Below, piece by piece: positions 6,740 to 52,817 of a stretch of DNA of 64,000 nucleotides (positions are counted from its first letter, which is position 1; every line of letters starts with the position of its first letter). The notes under the pieces are model-generated. The model was not told the origin of the DNA, did not search any database, and saw only the letters and a program-made list of their open reading frames with translations. This stretch comes from Welwitschia mirabilis. Taxonomy: Eukaryota. Both the position numbers and the translations under genes were made by a program. The stretch is from assembly GCA_051453625.1 (NCBI GenBank), contig JBOZIK010000001.1, forward strand, positions 48,401,235 to 48,465,234. The letters are read 5' to 3'.

Positions 6740-9700
6740 AGTTGGTCATGTTCCTATTCCTAACTCAATCCTTAAAAGCTCAAATATTGCTTCTAAAATA
6801 GGCTTAATAAACAAGTCAATAAGTTATTTACTTGTCCATACATGATCAAGTAGAATTGAGCCTCTTTAAACATGTTCTCTAATAAAGTGATGACTGATGT
6901 GAATATGCTTAGTTTTTGAGTATTTCATAGGATTCCTAGCCATGTTAATGGCACTATTATTATTACATAGGATTGAACTACTTGATATCTCAACTCCGTA
7001 ATCATGTAAGGTATGCATCATCCATAACAATTGAGTGTAGCAAACTCCAGTAGATATGTACTCAGCCTCAGCCATGAAGAGTGATATCAAGCTTTGTTTC
7101 TTGGAACTCCAAGTAAAAAACAATTTCCAAGAAAGTAACATGTTACAATTGTACATTTCCTATCATTTATACATTCGTCCTAATCTGCATCACTATACCC
7201 AACTAGGTTGAGTGAAATATCCTTAGAAAATCAAATACCAAAATTACTTGTATGTTTAAGATAATGAAAAATTCTTTTAATTAAAGAGAGATGAGATTCC
7301 TTAGGATTGGATTGATATCAAGTACATATACCAGCACTTAGTGCAATATCAAATTTAGCAAATGATAAATATAATAAACTACCAATTATACCTCGATACA
7401 TGGTTTGATTTATAGTTTTACTTGATTCATCCTTACTTATTTTTGTAGATATGAACATGGGAGTGCAAACCTCTTTTGCTTGATCAAGTTTGTACTCTTT
7501 TAGAATCTCTTTAACATACTTTGATTGACTAAGAAAAATACCATTCTTGAGCTATTTAATCTAGTAGTCTTGGCACTAAGTCCCATACTCCATTTCTTTT
7601 AAATTGAAGGAGTTCCTTTTGCATGGCTTCTAACCATTTCTTATGTAGTTCTAATTTAGCTATATTTCTAGGTTCAATATGAGACACAAAATAAAAATGA
7701 GCATAAATATTGTTTATATCTCATCTAATGCTTACTTTTGAATCTATATTCCCAATGATTAATCAGTTAGATGATCTATTTTCATTCTAAGGATAAAAAA
7801 GATCATTTTTGTGAATAAATAGGCTCAGAGGTATCATCAATTTCTTCCTCATCGGCTTTGTTAGTAATATTTTTCTAATTACCTTAAGTTCCTTTGTTAA
7901 GAGAGGGAATTAACTCATCCTCATCATCTTTAATCATCTTGCTGTTATTATTAGTCTTTAAAATTTTGACATGAATAGATTCTTCAACTTTATTTGTGTC
8001 ATAATTAAAAACTCTATAGGCTCTACTTTTTGAACAGTATCTAATAAAACTATCATGCATACCTTTAAGCTAGAATTTACCCAGATTTTTATCATTTAAA
8101 AATAATACATTTACTATCAAAGACTATAAATACTTTACCATTAGCTTCTTATCATTCCATAGTTTGTCAGTAGTGCTTTCAGTACGAGCCCTTAGAAAAC
8201 TCTTGTTAAAAATATAGCAAGCAGTATTTATAGCCTCAGGCCAAAACCATCTTGGAATATTATGTCCTCCTAGCATTTTCCTTACCATTTCTATTAAGAT
8301 CTTGTTCTTCCTTTCTATCATCCCATTTTGCTATGGTATTCTAGGAGCTGAAAACTAATGAAATATTTCATAATTATTATAAAATAAAATAAAATTCTCA
8401 TTTTCAAACTAACCTCCATGATGAAACTTGATTTTCTTAATGGTAAGGCCCTTTTCATTTTGAATTTTTCTGCAAATACAATAAAACTTATCAAAGGCAT
8501 TAGATTTAGAATGTTAAAAGTCAACCCATGTATAATGAGTAAAATCATCAATCACCACCATAAAATATTCTTACCACTTAAACTTTGAACTTTTGTAGGC
8601 TCTACTAAATGTAGATGCAACATATCTAGATGCCTTTTTAAGGATATTCAAGCTTAGATTTAAAAGAAAATTTGATGATTTTTCTTGCTTGATAATGTTC
8701 ACATAAGATATAATTTGAAAAGCCAAGTTTGGGTATGCCTCTAACTAACTCTTGTTGAGAGATGGTCTTTAAGTTAGAAACATTGGAATGACCCATTATT
8801 CTATGCCAGAGATGTTTTTGACTCTCTTGAGTAAAACCACATAGCTCTTTATCATTAGATTTTCCTTCTATAGAATATAAGTTTCTATATGGTGGGTAAT
8901 TAAAAGTTTTTATTTATTGGAAGCACTCTTTACTACACACTTATTTTTATCAAAAATAACTATATTCCCTTTATCATACATTTGGGAAATACTTAATATA
9001 TTATTCTTAACATCCTCTACATACAACACATCATTAATTTTTGGAAGATCATATTTACAAACCATACCTTTTCTATTTATTACTACTTTTTAATTGTCAT
9101 AAAAGGAAACCTCTTCTCCATCATAGTTGATAACTGTGTGAAACCTTCTTCTATTACCTATCATATGTCTTAAACATCCACTATCCAAGTACCATCTAGG
9201 ATACTCCTTCACTTTAAGAGTGGTCTAAACAAGCAATCCTTTAACAGATTTCTTTGTAACCCAACTTTGCTTAATGAGAGGCTAATTGTTTATTGTTTTT
9301 GGTTTTTAGAAAAACTTGTCACTTGTATAATAGAAAAAAATTTATCTTTCTGATGGGATAAGAAAATCTAACATGTCCTAGGCCTCCATAATAGAAACAT
9401 CAAATATGGAAAGACTTTAAATTATTAGACTTCAAAGCATAGCTCTTATGATCAAATCTTACCTTGTTGAAGTAATATGAGGTAGCAGCATTAAGTTTCC
9501 TTGCATCATCTAACTCCCTTAATAAAAGAGAAATAGTTTTATTTGCACCTACAAGACTTTTAATAGGCTTATCCAACTCTTTGTTAGCTAAGTCAAGTTT
9601 AGTTTGTAGAGATAATAATTTAGATTTTAAATCCCTATTTTTACAAGCTAAAATTTCATAATGAAGAATAATTATTTATAAGCTTCTTTAGTATTTTTAG

Positions 9701-12305
9701 AGTTTTTAGATACTACCTCATTCTCATTAGAGATTGCATTCTCATTCTTGGTAGTTGATATGAAGGCATACTCAGCAGTGATAACTAGCAATCCACAATT
9801 CTCTTCTTCATTTTTAGATTTTTTTGAGTGAGATCCTTCCTCACCATTCCAAGTAACTTAGAGGGCTTTCTTTCCTTTGATTTTGACTTTTCATGTATTA
9901 GCACATTCTGATGTTATGTATCAGAAGCTCTTGTACTCAAAGCACTGCAAATGTTTAATTTCTTATTTCTCCCAAAGTATTTGAAAGAATCTTTCTTTTT
10001 AATGTAATCCTCATTGGCATTAAATCTTGTTCTATCAAAGTCTTTTTATTTTCTTAGAAATATTCTAAAATTTTTGGCCAAAAGAACTAACTCATCATCA
10101 TCTTCTTCATTTCGGGAACCTTCTTTGCATTGACTTGAACATTTCAAAGCAATATTCTTTATCTTAGATTTCTCATCATCCATAATGGTAGCTTCATACA
10201 TAATTAATGATCCCTTGAGATTCTTTATACTCATGATATCTAGATTTTTTATCTCTTTAATCATANNNNNNNNNNNNNNNNNNNNNNNNNNNNNNNNNNN
10301 NNNNNNNNNNNNNNNNNNNNNNNNNNNNNNNNNNNNNNNNNNNNNNNNNNNNNNNNNNNNNNNNNGAGTAAAAAAACATAACTTTTTATCATTAGATTTT
10401 CCTCCTATAGAATGGGCAATTAAAAGTTTCTTATTGCTAGATATACTCTTTACCACACACTTATTTTTATCAAAAATAACTATATTCCCTTTGTCACACA
10501 TTTGAGTAATACTTAATAGATTATTCTTAAGGCTCTTACATACAAAACATTAACAATTTTTGGAAGATCATATTTACAAGCCATATCTTTTCCCTTGATG
10601 GATGCTTTTTGATTATCACTAAAGGAAACCTTTCCTTCATCATAGTTGACAGGTGTGTGAAACCTAATTCTGTCTCCTATCATATGTCTTAAACAATCAC
10701 TATTTAAGTATCATCTAGGATGCTCCTTTACTTTAAGAATAATCTAAACAAGTAACCCTTTAATATATTTCTTTTTAATCCATCTTTACTTGATGAGGCT
10801 TATTATTTGTTGCTTTTAATTTTTATAAAAACTTATCACTTGTATAATGGAAAAAAAAATTTCTTTCTGATGGGACAAGAAAATCTAACATGCCCTAGGC
10901 CTCCATAATATTAACATCAAATATGAAAATAATTTAAGCTATTAGACTTTAAAGCATACCTCTTATGATTATATTTAACTTATTGGAATGATATGAGGTA
11001 GTAGCATTGAGTTTCCTTGCATCCTCTAACTCCCTTGATAATAGAGAAATAGTTGTATTTGCATCTGCAAAACTTTCAGTAGTCTTATCCAACTCTTTAT
11101 TAGATAAGTTAAGGTTAGTTTGTAATGACAATAATTTAGATCTTAAATTCCTATTTTTACAAGCTAAAACTTAATAGTAAAAATATTATTATTCATAAGC
11201 TTCTTTAATATTTTTATAATTTTTAGATATTATCTTATTCTCATTCGAGATTGCATTCTCATACTTGATAGTTAATATGAAGAAATACTCATCATTGATA
11301 TCTAGTAATTTGCACTTCTCGTCTTTATTTTGAGATGTCTCTAAATTAGATTATTCGCTATCATTTCAAGTGACTTTGAGGGCTTTCTTCCCTTTAATTT
11401 TGGCCTTTCTATGTTAGCACATTTTATTATTATGTGTTTAAAGCCCTTGTACTTAAAGCATTGCAGAGGTTTCTTGTTTCTACTAATATTCTTGAAAGAT
11501 TCTTTCTTCTCAACCTAATTTCATTAACATCAAATCTTGATCTATTAAAGTATTTTTTTTTTTTTAGAAATCTTCTGAATTTTCTAGCCAAAAGGACTAA
11601 ATCCTCATCATATTCTTCATTGCTAAAATCATATTTGCATTAACTCGAACATTTCAAGGTAATATTTTTTATCTTAGATTCCTCATCATCCATAATGGTA
11701 TCTTTATATGTAATCAATGATCCCTTAAGCTCCTCTAGACTCATGGTATCTAGATTTTTACTCTTTTTAATCACAATAATTTTAGGTCTGAAACACTTAG
11801 GTAAGCTTTTTGAGATTTTTCTCATAACTCTTTATTCTAGAGTATTTTCTCTAAGACCCCACATTATACTCACAATGTCTATGATCTTGGTTGTGTATTC
11901 AATGACATATTTTTGTTCTTTTATTTTAATATTTTTAAATTAAGTTGTTACAAATTGTAGCTTAGAATTTTTCATAATATTCATACCTTCATGAGCAATC
12001 CTGAGGATATCCTAGATTTCCTTTACAGATGAATACTAAACTACTCAGCTATAATCCTTTGAATTAAGGGCATAAATAAGTGCATTCATTGCTTTTTCAT
12101 TAAGCTTTGCTTCCTCCTTTTATTCATTAAAACAACCTACCACTGGAATAGTAAGTTTAAAATAACCATATACAATACTATCCCAGATATTTAAATCAAG
12201 AGATTTTAGAAAAATTATCATTTTAGTTTTCCAAAAAGAATAGTTTGAGCTATTGAAATAATGTGGCCTCAAGATCAAATGGCCATCATTAGTGGTAGAT
12301 CCCAT
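6740..12305 (-). pseudogene. copia gag-pol of element A (internal duplication; RT core deleted)
   Basis: ORF 12120..12305 (RPHYFNSSNYSFWKTKMIIFL) is the gag N-terminus. Further gag ORFs at 11640..11825 and 10046..10501, plus integrase and RNase H ORFs. Confidence 0.9.
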
Positions 12306-33580: not shown

Positions 33581-33757
33581 NNNNNNNNNNNNNNNNNNNN
33601 NNNNNNNNNNNNNNNNNNNNNNNNNNNNNNNNNNNNNNNNNNNNNNNNNNNNNNNNNNNNNNNNNNNNNNNNNNNNNNNNCTTTAAAAAAATAAATACAC
33701 ATACATACATACATATATACATACATGCATATATACATACATACATATATATACATA

Positions 33758-33830
<73 letters not shown>

Positions 33831-35900
33831 ACACACACACACATATACACATATACATATATACGTGTATATATATATATATATATACACCTCTTAAATT
33901 AGAAATAGTTTATCATATAGCCTTCTTATGTTATTTTAGTATAGAGATTAGAGCTCCTTCTTATGAATTTAAGATATGAACATAAATGAATATAAGTTAT
34001 GAGTTGTTCTCTCTTAAAAATGCATATTTTAAAACTTTAAGTAGAGGTTTAGGATTAAAATTTGAGATACTCTCTTCATTAAAAGGTTATTATTTTGGTG
34101 TTTATGGTAGAGGTTCAAATTTAGGTTCCTATGGTGATGTTTTATGTTTACAATAATATGTATTTCAAGTGCTAATTCCATATGACATTCATGTAATGCA
34201 TGATCTTTTATATAAGATAAAGAATTTGAAATTTCATCTCTATTACTTGTAATTAACTTAATATCTTTGATATGAACTATATAATTCTTATTTGTTGCAT
34301 TGAAAACTTATAACTCTATATTCATATTATCAATAAACATTTTTAGTACACATTATAAAGTTGAAATAGTTAGCAATGATCTACCTAAGATAAGTGGACA
34401 TTCCTTTAAGTAATTTTCCATTTATTATATGATAAGTTCTACTAGGTGGTAGAATCTATTAACTTACACTAAGATATTCCACTCTTTCTTTAGATATTTT
34501 ATTGATTAATTAGTAATTTATAAACTGATTATTATTTTCTTTATTCCTTGCAATACAAGTAATTTACATAGTAAATATGAAATCACTCTTAAATATAATA
34601 AATTTTTATGTATTCTTTTTTCATTTTGGCACATGAAATAATTGTTGAACTAATATCTTAAATTTAGGTGAAACTTTTTTTGAACTATGACACTTACTTA
34701 TTGAGATAGAAAAGAATTTTTCTTATTTTTATCTTTTTGTCCATTATACACATAGCTTTAAGAAATTTTGCATATGAAGAAACTTGTTTAATGGCTTCTA
34801 AAATATAAATATTAATCTTCACTCTCTTAAATAGTTTTAGGTATTTTTATTCAAGTTGTTTTTTTTCATAGGTATGAAACATCTTGAAAATAAGGCTTTT
34901 TTAAGTTCTTCACATCTATATGTTTCATATTATTCATATCATATGTTTTGTGCTCATGATTAGGTTGAAATTCAAGGTTGGATGTAAAAGATTCTTCTCT
35001 TAGTGGTTGAACATTTTTATTTATTCATATACCTCTTTTAAATTAGATGGTATTAACACCACTAATTTTGTATTCTTTATCAAATTATCTTCCTTTGAAC
35101 TATTCATTAGTTAAGCTATGAGAATATCCCTTTATCTTTGATTAATTAAAGATAATCAGTAAGATGTAGTTTGATAAATTTGATTTACTTATTGTTCTAG
35201 TTGTTAAGAGTTTATATTATTTGATTATTTATTTTATTTTTTTATTATTAATGATCATTTAGGATTTAGAAAATTACTTTAGAATGTTTTTTAATGGTTT
35301 ACTTTAAGGTTTTCTATGTCCTTATCAGGTAGAGGCTTTATTTTATTGGTATTTTCAAAAAAATATAAGGTGATTCTTTTATTATAGATCATATGAATCT
35401 CCATATGAAAATTATAATTGGTATTATCATCTTAGAAAGAATCTTCTAGATTGTGTACTATTCACTTTCTAGCTTCATAACTAAGAATAGAATTATGTTC
35501 TTTCATTTCATTCTCATTTAAAGCACATATATCACATAGGGTAAATTCACTTGTGTTTTTAGATATTTTTATTTATTATAAGAATTTGACTATGCTATCT
35601 ATTTTTTAGTGTTATTTTCCTCATCTAATTTGTATGTATCTTTTCTTATAAATTTACTATATGGTTGAGATTATCTAGCTAAATCTTTAGGTATGGATGA
35701 TATTTCTTAATTTTTAGCACTCTTAGCTATATGACCTAAAGCATCACAACATTATTCTAGTAATTTAGATGTAATATTTCTTCTAATCATCATTTCAATT
35801 AGTTGTATATTTAGAAATGTCAATCTTTCCTAGGAAAAGTTCATTGTTCTTGTGCTTCAAAACCATATTAATGGCATTTCATCAAAAAGTTTTTAAAATA
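32650..35900 (-). pseudogene. very old Ty3/gypsy pol remnant (PR-RT-RH-IN order)
   Basis: Faint minus-strand motifs in gypsy order: protease-like (LFD..AINM) near 35870, RT-like near 35100 and 34915, RH-like near 34125, integrase C-terminal KL..GPY near 32700-32725. Confidence 0.5.
33509..33890. repeat. compound microsatellite (CT)n / gap / (ATAC)n(AT)n(AC)n
   Basis: Direct inspection. The ORFs called here are artefacts. Confidence 0.95.
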
Positions 35901-38800: not shown

Positions 38801-41275
38801 TTAGTTATGTTATCGCCATTAATAATGGGACATTACTTTAAGGATGTTTTTAGGTTACCTAAGCATTGGACATATTCAATCTACTCTAAAAATATTAATG
38901 CTATGTATTTGTATTACTTGAATGATCTAACAGACTTTTAAGATCTATCTAGACATAGATTTAAAAATACAAACTAAAAGGTTTCTAAAATGGAATTATA
39001 TTTTTGTGAGTCAAGGAATAAAAATTACAATTTCTATTACAATGGTACCAAACACTTATTCCTCCTTAATGATTATTATAATTCATAGTCTTCGTACTTA
39101 CATCTTAAGAGGGAAGAAATAGATAATGATATTAATTTTATAAAAATCAGGGGTCTAATATAGTATATGCAATTCTAATTGTCATTTTTGCATTTTGATA
39201 ATTAAAAACTTATTTTCCTAGGTATACAAATAATCCTTTGTAAGAAAGACTACCAAATAAGTCAAAGATGAGAGTAAGATATTACACTAATTACAAAATC
39301 ATTTCATAAACAAGTAATAAATTATTCAATGTAGATATCAAATGTCATAAATGCAATTAGTTTAAAGATGATTTTCCTTAAAATGAAATGTAGGAAATAC
39401 TACACTAGCATAAGAGATTTCATAAACAGTAATACATTAATCATTTAAACTTTAAGAATGAAATAACTCTAAATGATAAATACAAAAGACTACTCAAAAT
39501 TAACCATTTAATAATCATTAATCATAATTGTATTAATGACTGAATAATACAAGTCCGATAACAAATTAACATGCATTTACCAATCATGAAACTATATAAA
39601 TAATAATTCAATAAAAGTTAAAGTTTTAGGCTTGATAAGGCATATTCCTTACATAATAATTATTTCTTAATTCTTAGGGTGGAGAGATAAATGAAGCATA
39701 TACAATCATAATAAGACAAGCCCTTATCACATCCATGAAAAATTTTAATCGAAAAGGATAGTGTTCTGATACAAAATGGAATAGAATCTAATACAACATG
39801 AGATGAAATTAAATTCATTAATTGTTGATGTAGGATTTACTTATATCATGGGTTAGATTACTAATTACCTCAGTACATATTTAGTATGTTAAATAAATTT
39901 GGTTATTAAGAAGCTTCTTATGTATTATAATCAATCATGTTAACCCTTAGTTTTATTAAGATCCCCTTTGGCTTTTTGGATACTAAATTAACTTTTGTTC
40001 TTTGATTTAAGTTTAATTTAATAATGTGTTATCTAATCTATAACCTATATTTTCTATGAACTATTTCTCCACAAAACACTAATAGTATTATGAATTTAAA
40101 TGGTTATATTAATCATTTTTATTAACTTGGCTGGTCTAAAATTTAGATAACTTAAGATGATTTATAAGGTAAATTTAAAGTTTTAGTCCTTTTCAATAAC
40201 ATTCAAAAACTATAAGAGTTAAACTTAGCTAATGATAACTCAATGATAAGAATGGTAATCATATCCTTGAAATATATTATTTATTAAAGCTATGGGATTA
40301 AACATGTATAAATACAAGTGTAAATAATGATCTATATGAATAATATATTATATTTTTTAATATGGATATTCTTCTTCCTACATTACTTCTGCACCTTGAT
40401 AGATCTTGTTGTTAGATCGTCTACAATAATATCAAATATTCATGCAATACAATAATCAACAAACTCACAAAGTACTTCTTCATTCAATACAACTACTACA
40501 ATAGGAGAAATCATAGGGATACACTCTATTACTTTTTTATCTAAAATCTATGTAGAAGTAAATTTATATTACTAGAAGTATTCATGACTTCATTAACATG
40601 GTATCTATTTAAAATTATAAAAAATAATTTAGGAGAAATAATAAGAAGAAAATGAGAATGATATTACAAGATATTAGCAAACCACTATATTTTCATTTTT
40701 AAAGATCCTGAATTATGGTAATAAAACTCAAGTAGTTTCAATATCTTCATCTGTGTGCATCATAAATCTTAAACATATTAATGTGTTTTAAACACTAAGA
40801 AAGTTTTTAAAATAAAAATTACCATTAAAATTAAATAATCTTACAAAACTAATTCTTTATTTTTATAGGCAAAGAAATAGGTAATTAAAAAATTATTTGA
40901 TTATAATGCAAGTGTGAACTCATTTTCTTGTAAAAGTATAAGAAAATAAAGATTGACTTCATTAGGAAAATCAATTAATCTAAATCTAGTAAAGTATTTA
41001 GATAATAATATACAAACTCAACTATTCAAATCTAGTTCATTATCTATTGGAATATAATGTTAAGATTACTTCTACAAAGAAAAAGATCAAGTTAAAACTA
41101 TATTCATAGGTTTACTAAAAAGTTATGATTAACAACTATCCTTGGAATAAAGAAAAAACTTCCTAAATTATCATTAAAAACATGAAATCTATTTTATAAT
41201 GGATTAATTAATTAGTCATCTATCCTTAGTGTATGACTATAATTAAATGCTAAATACCTATTGGTAAAGCTTATT

Positions 41276-41382
41276 TAATAAGCAGTTCTTATGTTATTCA
41301 TAATCAAATTCATCAATACCTTTCTATCTAATAAGCAGTTCTTATGTTATTCATAATCAAATTCATCAATACCTTTCTATCT
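41276..41382. repeat. perfect 53-bp tandem duplication
   Basis: taataagcagttcttatgttattcataatcaaattcatcaatacctttctatc occurs twice back to back. Confidence 0.95.
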
Positions 41383-41771
41383 CAATATGGATTAGGATTT
41401 TTGGTTACTTTTATGTTCCAATATTATTAATGATATGACATATAAGCTATATTACTATTATGTCTGTACTAAATTAATTAAATATGATAACATGTAATAC
41501 ATGTTTAAAATATCTAAACCACATTTATAATAACCAAAAAAATGTAATTTAAAATACAAATTATCTTTAATTAATAAAATACTTTTTATTCTTCTAAAAG
41601 AGAAGATTATTAGGAGGATTTATAAGGAGGACAAGCTAGTAAGTTTTAAGTAAGGTTTTCAAGTAAAAGTTTCATTTAGAAGGAAGTCAAAAGGTCTGTA
41701 AGGAGTTATGTATAAGGAAGAAGAGGTATGTTTTCTTGTCAAATAATTTTCTTTCTTTTTTTCTACTATGT

Positions 41772-41876
41772 TTTTCTCTCCCTCTCTTTCTCTCTCTTTC
41801 TCTCTTCCTCTCCCTTCATCCCTCTCTCTCCCTATCCCTCTCCCTTCCTCTCCCGCTCTCCCTCTTCCTCTCCCTG

Positions 41877-41913
<37 letters not shown>

Positions 41914-41934
41914 CTCGCTCTCTCTCTCTCTCGC
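41772..41934. repeat. CT-rich polypyrimidine microsatellite
   Basis: Direct inspection. Confidence 0.9.
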
Positions 41935-42249
41935 TGGTTAATAATATACAACCTATTAATGTATCTTTCTTGATAATATGGATAAACTTGTTTTATTTAA
42001 GCTTTTCATATTCCATATTTTCTACTTATATATTCTACCATAAATTGACCTCTCCCTTGAGTAAGTAAATGCCCAAGAAAGTCCTTTTAATTTCATTACA
42101 TTTAAGAGGACATAAGAGCTTCCTGACATTATTAAGCCAAGAATCTAGATTTATTAATTTTATAATGCCTTTAAATTTGATGGATGCATATTAATAAGCC
42201 TTTCAATTAAATTCTTAATTTCTCCATTTTGAGGAATAATCTCTCTAAA

Positions 42250-42700
42250 TTGGGTTAAAGGTCATTGATTATACTATTGCATAACTGTGTTAGAAACTAT
42301 TTAAATACATCCATTACTATGTTATAATCTATGCTAGCTTGTACCTTTTAACACATGGTCATTCATTAATTGCCTCTTAGGATATGTAGCTTTTTCCTCA
42401 TGACATTGATTAGCTTTCACATTTGCATTATGATGTTCTTTTGCTTGATCTACCACTTGGTATGTTTATAAACTAAAATAATAATAACTTATTCCCTTTA
42501 CTTGTTATTATTTTTTGATTGTACTACTATGGAACCTTTGCTCTTATACTACTATGTAATGCGCAACTTAATTGAATTCTTAAATAAATTTATAAGCTAA
42601 AAGTTTCTAAATGGTAACCATTCAATTGTAAGGATTATGTTTAACTCTTATAAAAGAACCAAGATTAAAAAGAGCACTACTACATACTTAGTAAATAAAA
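42250..42700 (-). pseudogene. possible gypsy RNase H fragment
   Basis: Weak motifs only: NGYHLETFS (compare GHPIAYFS) and KHTKW (compare RHAKW). Confidence 0.3.
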
Positions 42701-44959
42701 GATTAATCAAGTGATGTTGTGTGATCATAATGACCACATTGTTTATTAAAATTACTATTTAGAAATTAAGGTAATAGTTTGTTTTAATAATCATAAGTGC
42801 AAGCAAATATCATTAGTAGTCATTTTTCATTCACCAACATTAACAAGCATAGCATAAGAATTTAATATACCATACGATTAAAAATAAAACTCTTAACTAT
42901 TATCAGTTATTAAACTTTATAGTACAAGAACAATAATTATTGTAAAAAAATATATATTTAACCTCATACTTAAAGAAGAAAATAATATCAGCATAGCAAT
43001 TATATTATCATATTTGTACAATAGTATAGCCTTGGATTTCCAATGAAGATTTCTGACTTTAGTACATGAGAGTCAATGCTATCTACATCCCACCTCAACA
43101 CGAGCTAACCTCAAGTCTAAGGGATGTGAATATATAGAGTCATGTATTACAAACAAATAGAAGAGAATATGATAACAAATAAATATGTCATGTATATAAC
43201 TAGTGGTAGTGATCTTAGAGCTACAAAATCATGATGTGATAAAGAGTTCTTATACAACATTAGAATTACAAATAATATCATAAACCTTAATACTAGAAAT
43301 CTCACCACATATAATTATCTCCATTGGTCAGATTTTGCATGTCAAATGGGAGCTTCTCCCAATGAATATATCTTTAAAGGTAAATGGTAGATAGAGAAAC
43401 ATGTTCCTTATGAATATCTTCACCGCATATCATTATCCTTATGAATATCCTCATCATAATTATTATTCAAAGTACACCAAAATTAACAACTCCATTAAGT
43501 ATTCTCTATGTGTTATGGAAGAGCATATTCCCATTAATGAAACTATAGGAGGTAATGGTGAAACACTTGTTTTGATGAGATTCTAGCTATGTATAACATC
43601 TTAATTAATATTATTACTATAACTATGAGATCAAAAGACATTAAATAATATTCCAAAATAACTTAAAATGTAATTAAAGATAGGAAGAAACATTATTTAA
43701 AATTTCTTTTCAATTAATAATCAGGAGTTGCAACTACTGTGTGCATACTAGAAGAGAGTATATTGACTCTAAAAAATATTTAGACTCGATCAAAATCATA
43801 AATGATTTTTTTAAAGGCGTAGAAAATTGTATCCCTAGATCTTTAGTAATAAGAAGTTGAATAATGATGCATAGTCTTTTGTAATATTAATTTGTAACTT
43901 TTTGCATCATGTCCCATTTAGAATCTCCATCCATCCACTTATGGAACTAAACATCAAATAGTCACAATTACAAACTTCTAAAAAGTAATATTATATTTAC
44001 AAATGAGAAATTGTAATATGTTTAGCTTGATATCAATGTTCCACTAAACATAAAAAAATATTATTTTTCACAGTGTAAGAAGGTTACTCAATAAGATAAG
44101 TATTACTTGATATACCTTTATAAATAGTCCTTAAACAATTTTTTGCCCTTTATTTCCTCCCTTAAAACTTTTTCTTTTTCTTGTCTACATAGATGGGGGT
44201 GAGAGAGATATTTATAAGCTCTAGGCAGGGCAGATGTATTAGCCCTTAAAACTTTTACTATGATTAAACTTTGAAAATATTATACCCTTTATAAAGTATC
44301 ACTTTTATATCTCTTATATTTTTACAAGGAAGTTTAAAATTATTAAAACTTTAAGAAAAATATCTTTGACATGCCTTAACTTCTTGAAAAATATATCTTC
44401 ATGCCTTTCTTTTTCTCTTTAAACCTATTTTCTTAAGGGCCTCGTCATATTTTCTTGATATTACATCAATTTGAGCATTTTCATATGGTTTTCTTTCATT
44501 AGATTTTAATAAATATTCTTATATTATTTATCTATATTTAATTTTTTAATGTCATATATTAATTACATAATTAATCTTGATTAATTATTAATTATATATA
44601 AATTATATTTACTAATTGAGATATTAATCATTTACTAATCATATCTACTAGTTGGAATTACATCTTTACATGTTATTTATTTCTTGGTTTTCCTACCCTT
44701 CTTTTAGTTATGTTTATTTAATTATGTTTAGGACATTATGGTATGTCAAGCAAGACATCTAAATATTTAAACCCATGAGCTTCTAGATGAAAGCACATGT
44801 TATTTCTTTCTTGCTTTTCCTTACCCTTTTTTAAATTATATTTAGGATCTCATCATGTGCTAAGGAGGATATCCAATGGCTGTAATCCATGATCTTGTAA
44901 ATGCAAGATGTATGTTTCCTTAGTTAGACTCTAACATGTTTATTATTGTTCTTACTAGG

Positions 44960-45250
44960 TTCTTAGTAAATATTCTTATGAAAAAATGGATTAACTTCTT
45001 TGATATTTTTATAGTTTCACAATCAATCCTGAAAAGGTTTTTCTAGAGTCACTTGGGAAACTTACACTTTAAATAAATATGATGGAGGTCTTAGCCTTAT
45101 TAACAATCATAAATAGGGTATTTCTTTATTCTCTATATGAATGAAGCAATGTTTTCTTAGTAAGGATTCTTTAAGGATTCTCCTTAGAAATAGAAATAAT
45201 CAAGGAAAACATAAAGTCTGGGAAATTGACATGATAATAATATCTTTTAC
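44960..45250 (+). pseudogene. short gypsy RT remnant (Tat/Athila-like)
   Basis: INPEKVF..GKL at about 45022-45063, compare LNPxKCxFGVxxGKLLG. Confidence 0.4.
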
Positions 45251-46289
45251 CGTGTCTTTTTCCTATGGCTATTTCTATTTTAGGCTCTTTGAATTTATAA
45301 CAAATTTCAAAGACTTGGAGTTTTAATAGTAATTTGGAAATAGTAGTGCATTAACATTTTAGAATTAATACTTCAATAATTAAATCATTAGTGGCTTCCA
45401 TTTAATGAACGTGCATAGGCTATTCAATTATCTAGGTTATGTTTACTTAGAACAAATTAACAATTAACATGGTTTCTTATCTTGGCTTGCATGGAAGATG
45501 GTTAACTTGAGGAGCATAACCTATCATTTATGGTCTCAAATAAGTTATAAGAAAGAAATAAAAACAATTTCCAAAAGCTTGTGAAGGAATTGAATAAATT
45601 ATTTGAGATGAATAATAATTTATAAGAAGCACAATTAGATATCTTTTAGACAAGTCAAATACCTATTTTCCACTTTTAGATAAAGATTACCTATGATATT
45701 ATTAACAAAAGTAAACAGATCTCTAAGAATCTAAATAAAACATAAAAACTTCAATTAGCTTATAATTCATGGAAGTAGAGAATTAAAAATATTTAGAAAT
45801 GTTCAACATTCCAAATATTTATATTTTTTTAATGATTTATAACTAACTAATACTTACCCATTAGTATATGTTAATAGCGTTTAGAATTTTCTTTACCTAG
45901 ATGTGTTATTTATGATGTTCAAAATTCTTTTGAGCATATCCTCATTCATTTTAGAGTTGCTCATAATGCATGGAACTAGACTTCTTTCTTTTGTGATAAT
46001 TTCGAGTCAATAATCATACATATTATTTTTGGATATGCTTTCCAACTTTCTAATTCCTTTTTCTTGTCTCAATATTTTTTTTCTTTTTTGAAAGAAACAA
46101 GCATTATATTAAACTAGAAAATTTACATAGGGGGGCAAACATGCCTTGACTTGAGAAGAATAAGAAACCTGATTGGCAGAAAAGAAAACTATCTTACTAT
46201 AATCATAGAAACCTGTTATATACAAGGCAAAATTTGGGGCAAAAGCATCCCTAAGAACTACAAATAAGTAAGAGCTAGTAAAAATTGAA

Positions 46290-47520
46290 ACTGAACTAAG
46301 AATAACTAGAAAAAATAGGGAATAAATATCTCGTAAAATTGGAGAAGACGTTGCCATGATGGTATTCAATCAGAAATCGTCCCATTTCATCTGCAAATAC
46401 CTCAAATGCTTGATTTACTTTCTTAAACTCCTTAGCCCCTATCTAGTTCTTATCTAGATGCAATCTAAGTTCCTTCTTTTGATAACTCAACTTAATGTCT
46501 TGCAGTTGAGATCTGTGTGAGATTCCCAAAGTTAAAAAAGCACATATTTTCAAATCATGGATCATAGCAAGTAAGAATTCTCTTTTCGTGTGGTCCATGT
46601 TAATGTCTTCATAAGGCTCTTGATTTCTCTCTTCTGAGGAGGAACCCGATGGAAATTTGATTCTTGATTTTGATTAGGACTACCTTCTATCTTCTGAGGA
46701 GAGGCCTCTTAGTTGTAACCTTGGGACCATTGCTCTTATTTTTGGGATTTAGTTGGGAATTTTTCTAAACTATCTCTTCTTACTCTCGGGGTGAATTCAC
46801 CTTCTCTATCTAAAATTCTTAGGACGAAGTCATCCATCTTTAAAAGTAGGGACTATCCCTCTTAGGATGAGGGGCTTCATCAGCTATAATCAGTTTCTTC
46901 GATTTTTTCTTAAAGGGGCTCTCTTGTGAGTTACATCACTAGGAGACAAAGGGAAGATCTCTTACCTTGTAGTCCCTTACAGCCTTCCAAAGAGCCATAA
47001 TTAGTCTAGAGTATTTGTTATAAAGCTTAAATGAAGAAGTGAGGGAGGTTAACTTGATGTCATAGGTATAAATATTTGAGGAAGGCAAAATGCAGGATTG
47101 ATAATATTGAGCAATAGCCAAATTGTATGAAATAATGGTCAATCATCTTGGCCTCCAAACCCCATAAGAACAGGAGCACCTTACAACCAATATGGCCACT
47201 AAGCAATTTTGGAACACTGCTCAAGAAGAAATGGGATGCCTTTCCCTGCCCTCTGCTCCTGAGAGGAATTCTTTTCCTTGTCACTGGAATGTCTAAAAGG
47301 TAGAAATGAAGTCTTCTATTATCTCTAAGGGGATTCTTCTAAACATAGTTCTTTACCCTCTCCATCTTCTATAAAATGGGCCAAAATTAGTCTCTGGTTC
47401 TCCTTTCAGCTTATGCAAGAGAGATACCCATCCCAATGCATGCACCTTATCCCAGAGCTCAGGTCATCCTTCGAACAAGCTAGGGTCTATTGGTTCAATA
47501 ATTGGAGTTGCTCCAATAGC
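46290..47520 (-). pseudogene. retroelement accessory (env-like/plant transposon protein) ORF with C-terminal DnaJ J-domain, frameshifted
   Basis: N-terminal IEPIDP...VHALGWVSLLHKLKG...PFYRRW...IPLEIIEDFI; middle WGLEAKMIDHYF...LHFAFLKYL...VNLPHFF; S/R/K/P-rich linker; then FLTLGISHRSQLQDIKLSYQKKELRLHLDKN*IGAKEFKKVNQAFEVFADEMGR at about 46377-46538. Confidence 0.75.
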
Positions 47521-47561
47521 TACCTTGATTTGCAAATGAGACCATTTAATCTTCTTAGCTG

Positions 47562-47570
47562 TATTTATAG
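47562..47570 (-). promoter_or_regulatory. TATA box upstream of the accessory ORF
   Basis: Minus-strand ccctataaatacag lies about 40-50 nt before the coding remnant. Confidence 0.55.
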
Positions 47571-50500
47571 GGAATGGGAGGGGGGGTACTATTGAATATC
47601 ACTTTATTGCATGTACACCAAATCTGTTATAAAGTTAGTTAAATCCCATCTTTTTTACATGTCTCAGATACATTCTAGTCATTATAATAGCTTGACATGA
47701 ATCAATTCAGAGCTCCACCTACATTGATGGAAAAGGTGTTGAGCATCTTCTTGACAAGATTGTCAGATCGTCTCAATCTATGTTTAACTTTTAGTCCTGT
47801 ATAATATTTAAAAGCTTCATTGCATAGTTAATTTTTATCATCTTAAATACAACTTTCACATTCCTAAAATAAATTTGAGATCTTATAAGATGTAGCTTAT
47901 TAAATTCAGACGCAACTTGAAAAACTTTATATAAATGGGGAGTATTTGAAATAGTTACCCAACTCTTTCTTATTGTGGTTTTATTTCTTAGTTTTGTTTT
48001 TGCTCTGTGTTGTTTTCTGTTAAATTATTTTCTTGTGTATTAGTGGATTTGTTCAAATGAAATCCTTTCATTTGTATTGATAATTTTTTCTTTTAACAAA
48101 ATAATTTTTTAAAGTCTTACACATCTTACTAATTATATTTATTAAAATTTTAATTATCTATATACTATTAAAAAATATTTAATACCCAAACCCATAATAT
48201 TTATCACATTAGATAGAATAAGATTACATTTGTAAATACTAAAAATCACACATTATTATATTATATAAAACAAATGTGGTATGTTTTTATAAATTGTTAT
48301 GCATTAACCATTTATTATTTCACTAAAATTATTTAATGACAATAGAAGATTACAATTCATGAATGTGATCTTTACATCAAGTTGATGTATCTTCCATCTT
48401 CTCTAAACTACCTAAGAAACTAGAGTCTAAATAGTCTATTACTTGGTTATGGGAGCAAAGGCTTCTATGTAGCTAATACTTAAATATGTGTAAAACAGTT
48501 TGCTATTAATTTTACCTCGTGTCTACTGAGTATTCCATATAATGTATTTCTAAACATACATTTATTCTTTACCACTTTCTTATTAAGTAGTAAGTCTACC
48601 ACTTTCCATGTATGATTCTCAATAAAACATTTACATTTCATGCACATTATATGTTGTGATACTGGATGTTCATTTGTATACTTGAAATTTGCTAGTTCTA
48701 AACTAAAAGTAAGATTAAATATGAATAGGATGCTCCTCATCATTTCCTTTCCTAATCGATAAAAATTACTCCCACTATGAGTGTTAAATTTATCTGCTTC
48801 ATTTGGTGAGATCTCCTTTAAAAGGTAACATTATTCATGACTTCTAACCAATGATATTATGCACAAGTATGTTCATGATATTACCACTTTTCTAGAGATG
48901 TCTTTAACAAAATTATTTAAGGCAGAATCGATATTAAAATTATATCCTACACCATACTATGTTTTGACTACTAAACTGGTTGTTGGTATATAGAAGCTTG
49001 ATCTCCTTGATGTTATCCTAATCCTTAACACTATCCTTGCCCTTGAGATAATTAGTTAGGCAAATAAGAAAAACAATGGTGAGGAGATTCATAGGCTTGC
49101 TATTGTGACATTACATTGAGAGGGTCACTAACCTCTCTAAATAGTAGAACCCTTATATCACATTTGTTTAATAAGATTTCTTTCTACTTCAGATTATGGA
49201 TACCTACCTTATCACCTACGGTCATGAGCTCTTTCAAAGACTCTAAAACAATGACATCTATAGCAAATATGATTTTTCTCTTCTTTGAAAGTAAAATTTA
49301 TACTCCTTAACATTTGTTCTATGCCCAACAAAAATGCTTGCTTTAGCATGTGGTTCTACTTTATTACAAGGTCATAGAAAAATAAATGCATAACATCAAG
49401 ATACAAACACTCTAAAGTATCAAATACTATCGTCATGATTTGTCCATAGTTGATGCTCATTGTGCTTTGAATATATAAAACATATTTAATAACATGTCTT
49501 GAGCCATCAAAAGTGAATTAGTTTGAAATATAAAAATACCAAGGCAACTAACAATTCTAGTATAGTGTCTTGAGAATGTCATTCTTCAAGGAAATGGGAA
49601 TTGAGCAAACTTTACAATAAAAATTGTACAACAATAGCTAACTAAAAATGATTTAGAATAATAAACTAAAGCTAGCACCATGCATCACAATTATGAGATG
49701 AACTAATAGGAATTATATTAATATTTTAAGCCTACCTATGCTTAAATATAAATAAATAAAATTCTTAATAAGTTCTTGTAAAGATAACTATGTAGCTTAA
49801 TGGATACCTTATAGGAAATAAAAAATCAAATAAATCTTCATTGAAGCTCATATTTGAGATGAAATTGATATCACAATCAATATTGTCAAGTCACTTTAAC
49901 ATTCGTAGTCCTCTCATGGTAGAAAAGAAACTTAATCAGCAAATTAATTACTAAGAACAAGGTTAAGAGCTATGTCTAGACATTATGAAATCATTATGAA
50001 AACTAGAATCATAGCAATAAATCAAATACAATTATAAAAATATAGATATTCTTGGTTATTCAAAAGTTGCAATAACAATACTACTTAAAAATTAACTCTA
50101 TTAAGCTAATTATATAGCTTGATAATGGACTAAGTCCTAAAAGACTATTTAGAACTCCATGGCTTACAAGAAGTGAATGAATTACAATGAATGCAAATTT
50201 TGATTTAATATAGTATATCAAAAGGAGTAAAGATGACTTAAGAATATGATACATTTGAGGTAAATTCATTAGTTAGAAATGATTTTAATATTAAGAAGAC
50301 CAATTCAATTTAGTTAGATTACATCTTGATGATTACAAGATTAAGATTTTATTAAGGAGGAGTTTTCTAAAGTAGATAATCAAATCTCATTAATTAAATA
50401 TTAGCAAATTCAAAATATGTAGTCTTTAATAAGTTAATCATTCATGTAAAAGTTTAGATAAGGAAAAGTCCTAAGTGGTAACAAAGACGAATTGTCTCAC

Positions 50501-52817
50501 TAGGTGTATTAGTAAAGTATTAGATTTTGATAAGTAGCATTTGGGATCTTATTCCTTATGGCTTTATTACCTACAATTTAGTAGTTTTAATATTAGTTTT
50601 AGTATTAGAAACATGAAATTTCTCAAATAAGCATAAACATTAAATTATAATCACAAATAGACATGCTTAAGGGATAGAATACTAAAAATTAAATCAAAAT
50701 CAAGGGTATAATCATGCCTATTTTATCTCTTGTTAGCAAATCAACATGTATTTTTAACTCCTTTGTGATAAAGAATTCAATGTTTGGGCTAACGTATTAA
50801 GGGCCTCTTCCCATAAACGAGTAGGGAGTCCCTTGTAGATAAGTATGACTCTTGCCATGTCTAGAAGCATATGATTTAGTGATTAACTATACAATTCTAC
50901 TATAGTGTATCTAAGATGGTTGTTTGGTGTTTGATTTCATGTTTCTCTAAAAATTCTAATGATCCTTTAGAGATGTATTTTCCTCCATTTTCTATGCATA
51001 ATACTCTTGAATTTGAAATTTGACTTATTTTCGATGAACTTCTTAAATGTCAAAAAAGAATGCAAGGCTTATCACTTAGGTTTGAAGTAAATGATCATCT
51101 CTTTCTTGTGTAGTCATCTCTGAAAGTGACAGAGTAGTGATTCCCTCTAAATACCTCTATAAGTCCACATACATCAGAATGAACTAGCTATAACTTCTTC
51201 TTGAAATTTTGGTAACACTTTTTGAATGGTAATCTTATAGTCTTATTTAAAATATAGGTTTTACATTTTATATTTTTTATTTGTAGATCCTGTAGAGTTC
51301 CTTTATGGTTACAGATCCTCTCTAATGACATGTGATTAAGTCATGCATTCCAAAAGATCCTCTTTAAGCTTTTGTGAATTCTTCATCTAAGAAAACATAG
51401 ATTAGTATATTTCCTCCTCAAACTTTCTTGAGACAACATTTCCCTCTTAATCTATTAGAGCTCGTGCATTTAGCCACATCAACTTATCTTAAAGACTACA
51501 TCATAAGATAGGATACCTTACTCTTCTTGATGTCTACTTTCCCATCTATTCCTATCATTTTAACATCAAATTCCTTCCTCACCAATGTGCTGAGTAATAA
51601 TAGATTTTGCTTTAAACTAGAAATGTACAAGCTTCTTTCAACTAAAGTCCTGTTGCTTCATTTAAAGGTTGAGTTAACATTAATCAAATTCCCCTTATTG
51701 GCTCTATACTCTTGTTTCCATTCACAGTGTACAATAGAAGTAAATGTTCAAATTAAAGAAAATAATCCATTACACATGTCATACATTAAGTGACTCGTGT
51801 CTAATACTAGTAGTTGATGATATTTGGTATTATAGAGTTGACATGATTCATCTCGACTTGTACTTAAGGATTAGATTTAAAAGATCCTAAGAAGTCTCAT
51901 TTACGATACTCATAGGAACATGGGGCTCTTTTCACAATTATTACGAGAATTAAACTCCTTCTTTGTATCTTTCGTCTAATGTGATTAACTTTTTTTTTAA
52001 TTTTTTTCTCTCTCCTTTTTTTTTTAATTTGGGGATCTATCAAATAGACTTCTACACTTTGAAGCTATGTGACCCTTCTTACTACATATGTTTCTTTACC
52101 ACTTACTTTTCTTCTTGTCTTTCTTCAAGCTCTCCTCATAACTTACATTCTTTTAGTACTCTTTATCCTGATTGAATCTTCTATTATTTTTATCTTGACG
52201 AACCCTTTAATTTTTCTTTTTGATATTATTTCTATAGTAATCTTTGTCCCCTTAGCATCAACACTGCACCATGTACCATCATTATACTATGTATTAAGAT
52301 CAACTAGAATTTGCCCTTAGATTCTTAATGTACAAGACCTTTAACATGCTATCTACTATTTATATCATGATAATTTGGTCATAGTTACATATTTCTTAAG
52401 CATTTTTATAAGAAGAACCTAAGCAATACACCATTTATTATACTTTTTTGAGAATCTCTTTGATACCTTATAGCTCAATTATGACTTTTAAGGGTTTTCT
52501 CTTCTCCATTTGAAGATTGTTGATACTATTCAATAGATAAAAGAACTCTATGTTTAACTTTTTACTACATTCTATTTTAAATGTCTTTATAATTTTTTAT
52601 GCATTATCACATTGTTGCACCATCTTATGATGATGTTCATCCATGGTTAAAAGAATAGCAAATGCTAAAATTTCATTACTGACAATCTAATATTGAAATT
52701 CATCTCATTTGAAGGATGTCAACTTGATGAGCTTGGCTCCTATGTGGTTGTTAATCTTTAGCTATTATTTATACATCTATTTAGATTTGACTACTAAGAT
52801 GAATTGATTATCCCATT

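Follow-up and report, generated by a model that had tools for sequence, protein, structure and literature searches.

A 64,000-nucleotide stretch of DNA from Welwitschia mirabilis (contig JBOZIK010000001.1, positions 48,401,235 to 48,465,234; hereafter the window, its first letter being position 1) carries on its minus strand the remains of a J-domain of the DnaJ family, set within a repeated unit of ~2.1 kb (46084-48170). The domain is a genuine J-domain, it is broken in the window copy, it recurs in many copies, and the repeat to which it belongs stops at a sharp 3' boundary. Dozens of copies, diverged from one another, make up the family in this plant, and a very close relative has it too in such numbers. 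We give about an even chance to the reading that the locus is a decayed member of an interspersed repeat carrying a J-domain captured from a host gene. Read in sense order, the unit would begin with an open reading frame (ORF) remnant and, past a low-complexity spacer that evolves fast, lead to a complete class A/B-like J-domain, behind which come a trailer and an A-rich end. The J-domain would have been taken from a host J-protein gene, by capture of a gene fragment or by retroposition of a transcript, and would then have multiplied as part of the repeat, at least partly at a time when the reading frames were already broken; we infer both its status as a passenger and the class of the element.

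The J-domain

The first-pass annotation of this DNA, made from the letters alone, had quoted a peptide with a J-domain pattern, and the minus strand at 46673-46296 reads exactly so, in a single frame with one internal TAG (46445-46443). The assignment holds by profile as well as by structure-database matches. Against the Pfam DnaJ profile (PF00226), residues 48-98 of the peptide (46532-46380) match profile positions 5-58 of 63 with an E value of 1e-7 and 32.4 bits, above the gathering score of 27.8 bits, and the other Pfam families listed for the peptide, Globin and FBF1, score far under their cut-offs. A search of the Protein Data Bank (PDB) returned 47 distinct sequences at E<=10, nearly all of them J-domains, with Caenorhabditis elegans DNJ-12 as the best match (38.4 bits, E 1.2e-8) and DNAJA1, Sis1 and DNAJB1 next. 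The PDB alignments reach beyond the Pfam-matched core (46380-46532, minus strand) to about 46565-46356. Judged by its sequence, the domain is full length, with helices I-IV, and class A/B-like.

The likeness to the class A/B J-domains of DNJ-12, DNAJA1, DNAJB1 and Sis1 thus covers all four helices, and the loop between helices II and III is of the same length as in DNJ-12, with which 21 of 55 aligned residues are identical by our count on the PDB alignment. The window copy nevertheless departs from these proteins in several respects: it stands at the end of its frame rather than at an N-terminus, it is not followed by a G/F region, a zinc finger or client-binding domains of the C-terminal kind, it reads HLD in place of HPD, and its loop contains a stop in frame. 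The HPD tripeptide between helices II and III is required for stimulation of Hsp70. At 46460-46452 the window copy does read HLD, as had been noted, and the accompanying remark on general C>T decay fits the strong CpG depletion across the window (observed/expected 0.16-0.18). Three codons after HLD, still within the loop between helices II and III, stands the in-frame TAG (46443-46445), so that the copy has neither the HPD tripeptide nor an uninterrupted frame. Because of these two lesions the window copy of the J-domain is dead; it yields no protein and recruits no Hsp70. The function that had been proposed for an accessory protein fused to a J-domain is accordingly unsupported at this locus.

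Downstream of the Pfam core lie a short C-terminal tail and a non-coding trailer (46090-46379). In most copies the J frame ends at a stop at 46324-46322, about 19 codons past the end of the core at 46380. Word-based protein searches with the J peptide produced 122, 2 and 154 candidates, none of them scoring, a result that excludes close relatives only, as by our estimate the library is so large that generic J-domain matches of 30-40 bits cannot pass. Metagenome and viral contigs scanned with the J peptide and one DNA pattern likewise contained no relatives.

Copy number and conservation of the repeat family

For the DNA comparison, contigs of run X1 (organism A) and run X5 (organism B) were aligned to 45000-49500 at a likeness of at least 80%, and for the RNA comparison raw reads of runs X15 and X18 were aligned to the same region at the same threshold. 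Organism B has the same locus at >99% identity (records 9 and 16) and is therefore a very close relative. In all, 3251 contigs of X1 and 3514 of X5 aligned, including 2195 and 2325, respectively, that were <90% alike. The locus's own contigs account for a depth of 8-12, and the summed contig depth is 13-22 over 48624-49378 and 59-1701 over 45000-48170.

Depth is unevenly spread within the unit. The bins covering the J-domain (46359-46660) have summed depths of 645 and 431 in X1 and of 861 and 657 in X5, and those over the upstream ORF remnant (47265-47566) reach 660 and 495 in X1 and 1195 and 802 in X5; in the spacer between them (46661-47264) the X1 depth is 59-172. Counts of contigs carrying the family letter at individual places follow the same course, with 58 (X1) and 77 (X5) at 46395, 62 and 69 at 46613, 42-60 in X1 at the upstream places 47328, 47385, 47515 and 47540, 38-81 in X5 at the listed upstream places, and 5-9 at two listed places in 46661-46962. 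Since dozens of distinct diverged contigs carry it, the J segment belongs to a repeat family, and the possibility of a single-copy J-domain, raised earlier as one that would undo the proposal, does not apply. One X1 contig (record 3, 552 nt, with 91 differences and 6 gaps) spans 46075-46586, so that trailer and J-domain are contiguous in another copy. Within the 64-kb window itself, blastn and tblastn found no copy besides the locus, and neither 45700-48100 nor 40000-46100 has a partner there.

A deletion derivative is common to both organisms. One contig per DNA run skips 154 bases at 46284-46439 (sides of 67-68 letters), so that the J-domain lacks its end and the trailer is shortened.

The window copy compared with the family majority

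Of 963 differing places, 40 are listed, and 17 of the majority differences among them fall within 46290-47600. At 46395 the majority encodes the canonical Leu of the helix III 'EVL' motif, where the window copy has Phe. The 40 places do not include the HPD codon or the TAG. Upstream, the majority letter differs at the first base of the stop at 47062-47060, in frame b of the ORF remnant, and this stop is therefore missing in most copies.

The break between frames c and b of that remnant lies at 47301/47302. A one-base length difference occurs there in 20.3/166 and 11.4/157 of the depth in X1 and in 9.8/141 and 20.5/107 in X5, so that the other length makes up about 20-25% of the depth only and the majority has the frame state of the window copy. 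Most copies thus seem to share this frame break, which suggests that they spread after it had arisen. At 47333, 30 family letters align without gaps to the window, 22 of the 30 being the same, and there is no length difference. Farther upstream, at 47761/47762, 25 contigs of X1 and 31 of X5 go on with shared but different sequence, and it is therefore the window copy that is rearranged at this point.

Boundaries of the repeated unit

The 3' end of the unit is well marked and its 5' end approximate. At 46084, 49 contigs of X1 and 37 of X5 leave the family, and their onward letters, A-rich in the sense of the unit, agree with each other at 0.45-0.46. The divergence of the contigs lies inside an A-rich run (46071-46089, minus strand), and on the 3' side the family truly ends at 46084. 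The unit thus closes as a poly(A)-type retroposon or a processed retrocopy does, with an A-rich tail and unrelated flank beyond it, and such an end fits a retroposon of this type or a retroposed transcript better than an LTR (long terminal repeat) junction, because a conserved LTR start should follow at the latter. The depth profile of the unit, on the other hand, is not a gradient of 5' truncation. On the 5' side, depth drops beyond 48170. One joint in X5 links 48161 to 46105 with 24 letters between them, in another locus, which suggests units that are head-to-tail neighbours.

No Helitron ends were seen at the unit boundaries marked by contig depth. The one match between the flanks is an A-rich word of 11 nt, found at 46087 and again at 48094, and by rough estimate chance can give it. 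Among the 25 of 45 inverted pairs listed for a 3.6-kb segment, the best at plausible unit ends is 45816-45855 / 48145-48184, whose 40 nt are 70% complementary, a degree of pairing that looks chance-like in DNA so rich in A and T.

The sequence on the 3' side of the J unit (45000-46083) is itself repeated, at an X1 depth of 86-356, and has a boundary of its own at 45810, where 35 X1 contigs continue into shared different sequence (agreement 0.69). Several joints with short sides connect 45.1-46.07 kb with 47.79-47.92 kb, for example 45810->47921 and 46067->47803; their sides measure 22-42 letters at 80% likeness, and we do not rely on them. They hint that another repeat may contain the J unit, either inserted into it or as a part that it can lack.

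The upstream open reading frame remnant and the supposed fusion

The motif strings of the domain that had been described upstream of the J-domain are present, but they are split over two frames, with stops in each and without a Pfam match. The first part lies in frame c (47463-47302, minus strand), has an internal TAA (47355-47353) and matches no Pfam family; the second lies in frame b (47301-47027) with stops at 47062-47060 and 47029-47027. Frame b includes an open stretch of 92 codons at 47338-47063, and the J-domain is in frame a. Between the remnant and the J-domain extends a low-complexity, poorly conserved spacer (46674-47026), where each of the three frames is interrupted by stops. Its 3' edge is straddled by an imperfect repeat of 17 nt (46625-46641 / 46685-46701, D10) with a spacing of 60 nt.

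Protein comparisons gave the remnant no relatives. Neither the three whole-frame translations of the upstream region nor five shorter pieces matched any Pfam family at E<=10, and a full HMMER search with the frame-b translation found no relative at E<=0.001 among 1,835,955,588 representative proteins, where a hit would have needed about 56 bits by rough estimate. The supposed likeness to env-like or extra-ORF proteins, or to PF20167, was not recovered with Pfam profiles or in the protein library. PF20167 and PF03078 in particular were without a match at E<=10, in a search that a distant relative could escape, the upstream pieces being short and broken. Clusters of the chordate family FAM75, proposed by ESM Atlas (0.92) for the 92-residue frame-b stretch, were rejected as a composition artefact in plant sequence. 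AlphaFold2 modelled the same stretch with a pLDDT of 62 and a pTM of 0.29, the only predicted structure being two C-terminal helices, and the model is too weak to be fit for a fold search.

A TATA box had also been assigned to the upstream ORF. The motif CTATAAATAC is indeed present at 47570-47561 on the minus strand, but it is uninformative: the two strands of the window together contain TATAAA 180 times (2.8 per kb), and the minus strand contains the exact 10-mer CTATAAATAC five times. We give the motif no weight.

The fusion of the upstream domain to the J-domain across the linker, which the first-pass annotation had itself only inferred, is not supported. Stops occur in every frame at 47027-46673, and no listed state of any copy joins frame b to the J frame. 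The ancestral layout may equally well have been a separate small J-domain ORF that began with the ATG at 46598-46596 and closed with the family stop.

The neighbouring Copia remnant and the LTR context

Upstream, the strand that bears the J unit also carries a heavily decayed Copia-type element (48346-52800, minus strand). Its pol is recognized by the SH3_retrovirus profile at 49431-49273 (29.7 bits, minus strand) and by RVT_2, of which profile positions 41-92 of 244 alone match, at 48501-48346, where the match stops. The first-pass annotation had placed the J-domain in a retroelement, and this is not supported, in view of the absence of a bracketing LTR pair, the different depth over the Copia pol, and the end of the family at an A-rich run followed by unlike sequences. 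Over the pol remnant (48322-49378) the X1 depth is 13-46, versus 431-660 over the J and upstream segments; the remnant is near single-copy, and this difference puts it outside the J family. A gag-like zinc-knuckle string is visible upstream in the Copia-type element, for which no LTRs were recognized.

Direct repeats of the 64-kb window include three LTR-like pairs, at about 5.4/12.5, 25.8/30.9 and 52.8/60.6 kb, and none that brackets 46-48 kb, where a partner could have been deleted. The three pairs, 5384-5978/12517-13108 (spacing 7.1 kb), 25798-26825/30875-31902 (5.1 kb) and 52839-53593/60610-61848 (7.8-8.3 kb), are 76-85% alike, and each pair probably represents the LTRs of an old LTR retrotransposon. 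Pfam searches with the plus-strand frames of 40000-48300 and the minus-strand frames of 43000-46300 gave nothing, and the five other translations searched together with the Copia matches were likewise blank.

The window as a whole is AT-rich, with a GC content of 0.23-0.35 in 2-kb steps, contains 1610 N, and looks like plant DNA crowded with decayed repeats. Within the first LTR-bounded element, a tandem duplication (8885-10263 / 10405-11773; D7, D9-D12, D15, D20) has a period of about 1.5 kb and arms 80-87% alike. A microsatellite of (ATAC)n/(AT)n/(AC)n at 33661-33924 adjoins a run of N, and the 'ORFs' at 3.7-4.6 kb and 60.7-61.4 kb, free of stops in all frames, are probably assembly gaps too, in the form of more runs of N.

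Expression

The RNA reads give little sign of activity, and among the indexed sequencing runs none of RNA is listed as containing the sequence. From the 12.5 million reads of X15, 27 match; 21 of these are <90% alike, 25 fit only partly, and they fall on 46359-47113 with the first mate mostly on the plus strand. X18 contributes five matching reads from 11.1 million, four of them <90% alike and all five fitting only partly. Neither set contains visible expression of the window copy, and diverged relatives are at most weakly transcribed.

Origin of the J-domain unit

Several observations weigh against a host J-domain carried along as a passenger. No donor host gene was identified, and for the unit we found no LTRs and no convincing terminal inverted repeats (TIRs), target-site duplication or Helitron ends. 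Depth over the J and upstream segments is 3-10 times that over the spacer, a figure to be read with the caveat that depth summed over contigs is not copy number, and this pattern fits a once-functional element protein, under past coding selection, better than a pure passenger. The J-domain is, moreover, full length, and the family majority is more canonical than the window copy. Because the coding-like segments are the better conserved ones and the majority the more canonical, we keep in consideration, as unlikely, that the family once encoded a J-domain protein of its own, with the J-domain either forming the C-terminal part of the upstream ORF or standing alone in a small ORF of ~90 codons (46598-46322). 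Such a protein would have recruited host Hsp70, to be used in the assembly or transport of element intermediates or in interference with J-protein-dependent silencing of the MBD5/6-SILENZIO type, and would have been kept by selection during the spread. Consistent with this, no other parts of the unit are conserved as well as the J and upstream segments (depth 431-660 versus 59-172 in the spacer, X1), which occur in similar numbers of contigs (58-62 for J versus 42-60 upstream in X1, 69-77 versus 38-81 in X5), the majority restores the canonical residue of helix III and lacks one stop of the window copy, and a common stop follows soon after the J-domain, as it would at a real ORF end. Yet no intact copy was seen, the HPD codon is not among the 40 of 963 differing places listed, no listed state links frame b with the J frame, and the frame break at 47301/47302 is common to most copies. 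The few X15 reads from diverged copies on 46359-47113 also count in its favour, but they amount to a handful of partial reads. SILENZIO, described in PMC8616336 as a J-protein in transposon silencing, is a conceivable target. No protein of this architecture turned up in large libraries, either in the HMMER search with frame b or in the word searches with the J peptide.

Two further explanations were weighed. It is quite improbable, in our estimate, that the region is a pseudogene of a non-mobile, lineage-specific expanded host gene family, with intronless N-domain/J-domain genes in tandem and dispersed positions. The head-to-tail joint of units in another locus (X5, 48161->46105) and the gene-like layout, with TATA-like motif, ORF, trailer and A-rich end, speak for such genes, and DNAJ-like genes are among the redundant families of sunflower repeats (PMC3852528); but the upstream part has no relative in 1.84e9 proteins and the J part none by word search, most copies are 80-90% alike and broken, and 49 and 37 contigs pass into unlike flanks across a single sharp 3' boundary, in the manner of dispersed insertions. 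Still less probable, with no more than a slight chance, is that the region is the post-pol accessory ORF (env-like or Athila-type) of an LTR retrotransposon fused to a J-domain, with 46089-46071 as the polypurine tract. The unit does lie directly downstream of the Copia pol remnant on the same strand, a purine-rich run marks the family boundary, and some plant elements are known to have accessory ORFs that follow pol and precede the 3' LTR (PMC7264820, PMC11728184). Against this, there is no LTR pair around the region; 45700-48100 and 40000-46100 have no partner in the window; the Copia remnant ends at RT profile position 92 of 244 and has a depth of 13-46 versus hundreds; letters past 46084 disagree among copies (0.45-0.46), leaving no shared LTR start; and PF20167 and PF03078 have no match at E<=10. 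Capture of a host J-domain by an interspersed repeat is the reading that we prefer, at the even chance given above.

Relation to known systems and significance

Captured gene pieces in Pack-MULEs, Helitrons and the Bs1 LTR retrotransposon offer a close parallel to a J-domain captured in this way, each being a piece of a cellular gene in a dispersed multi-copy repeat that decays without function. The window unit differs from them in that no such ends were found and no donor gene was identified, and in that what was captured would be an entire domain, whose conservation between copies exceeds that of the sequence around it. Plant transposons commonly capture genes, as stated in PMC7264820. DnaJ-like coding sequence has also been met in the redundant or repeated fraction of another plant genome: in the sunflower repeat database SUNREP, 'DNAJ-like protein' is the second most frequent gene family, with 18 sequences (PMC3852528). 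In that paper it is treated as a redundant gene family and placed in no element, and the likeness to our unit is one of description.

The Athila-type 3' accessory ORFs and the families PF20167 (Transposase_32) and PF03078 resemble the unit in a position downstream of a same-strand pol remnant and in some short motif strings; it differs from them in having no hidden Markov model match, no LTRs and a copy number unlike that of the neighbouring pol. According to PMC11728184, a sunflower Athila 3' ORF matches PF20167 in part, and this family is related to Athila ORF1.

In the literature we found no plant mobile element described as encoding a J-domain, and 'DnaJ' is absent from the main text of the accessory-ORF papers searched, their supplements lying outside the search. 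Selfish elements with an Hsp70-recruiting module of their own are known from a few viruses. The polyomavirus T antigens carry viral J-domains that are intact, HPD-bearing and experimentally functional. What the unit described here shares with them is the idea of a selfish element with its own J-domain; its window copy, by contrast, is dead, and nothing shows a function.

As it stands, the unit is a further case of a cellular gene piece multiplied in a plant repeat, which is common and leaves the host unaffected. A working J-domain once carried by the family would make it important; we have found none reported for plant mobile elements. Weight is added to that question by SILENZIO, a plant J-domain protein that, according to PMC8616336, acts with MBD5/6 and Hsp70 in transposon silencing, a process to which a plant J-protein has thus recently been tied.

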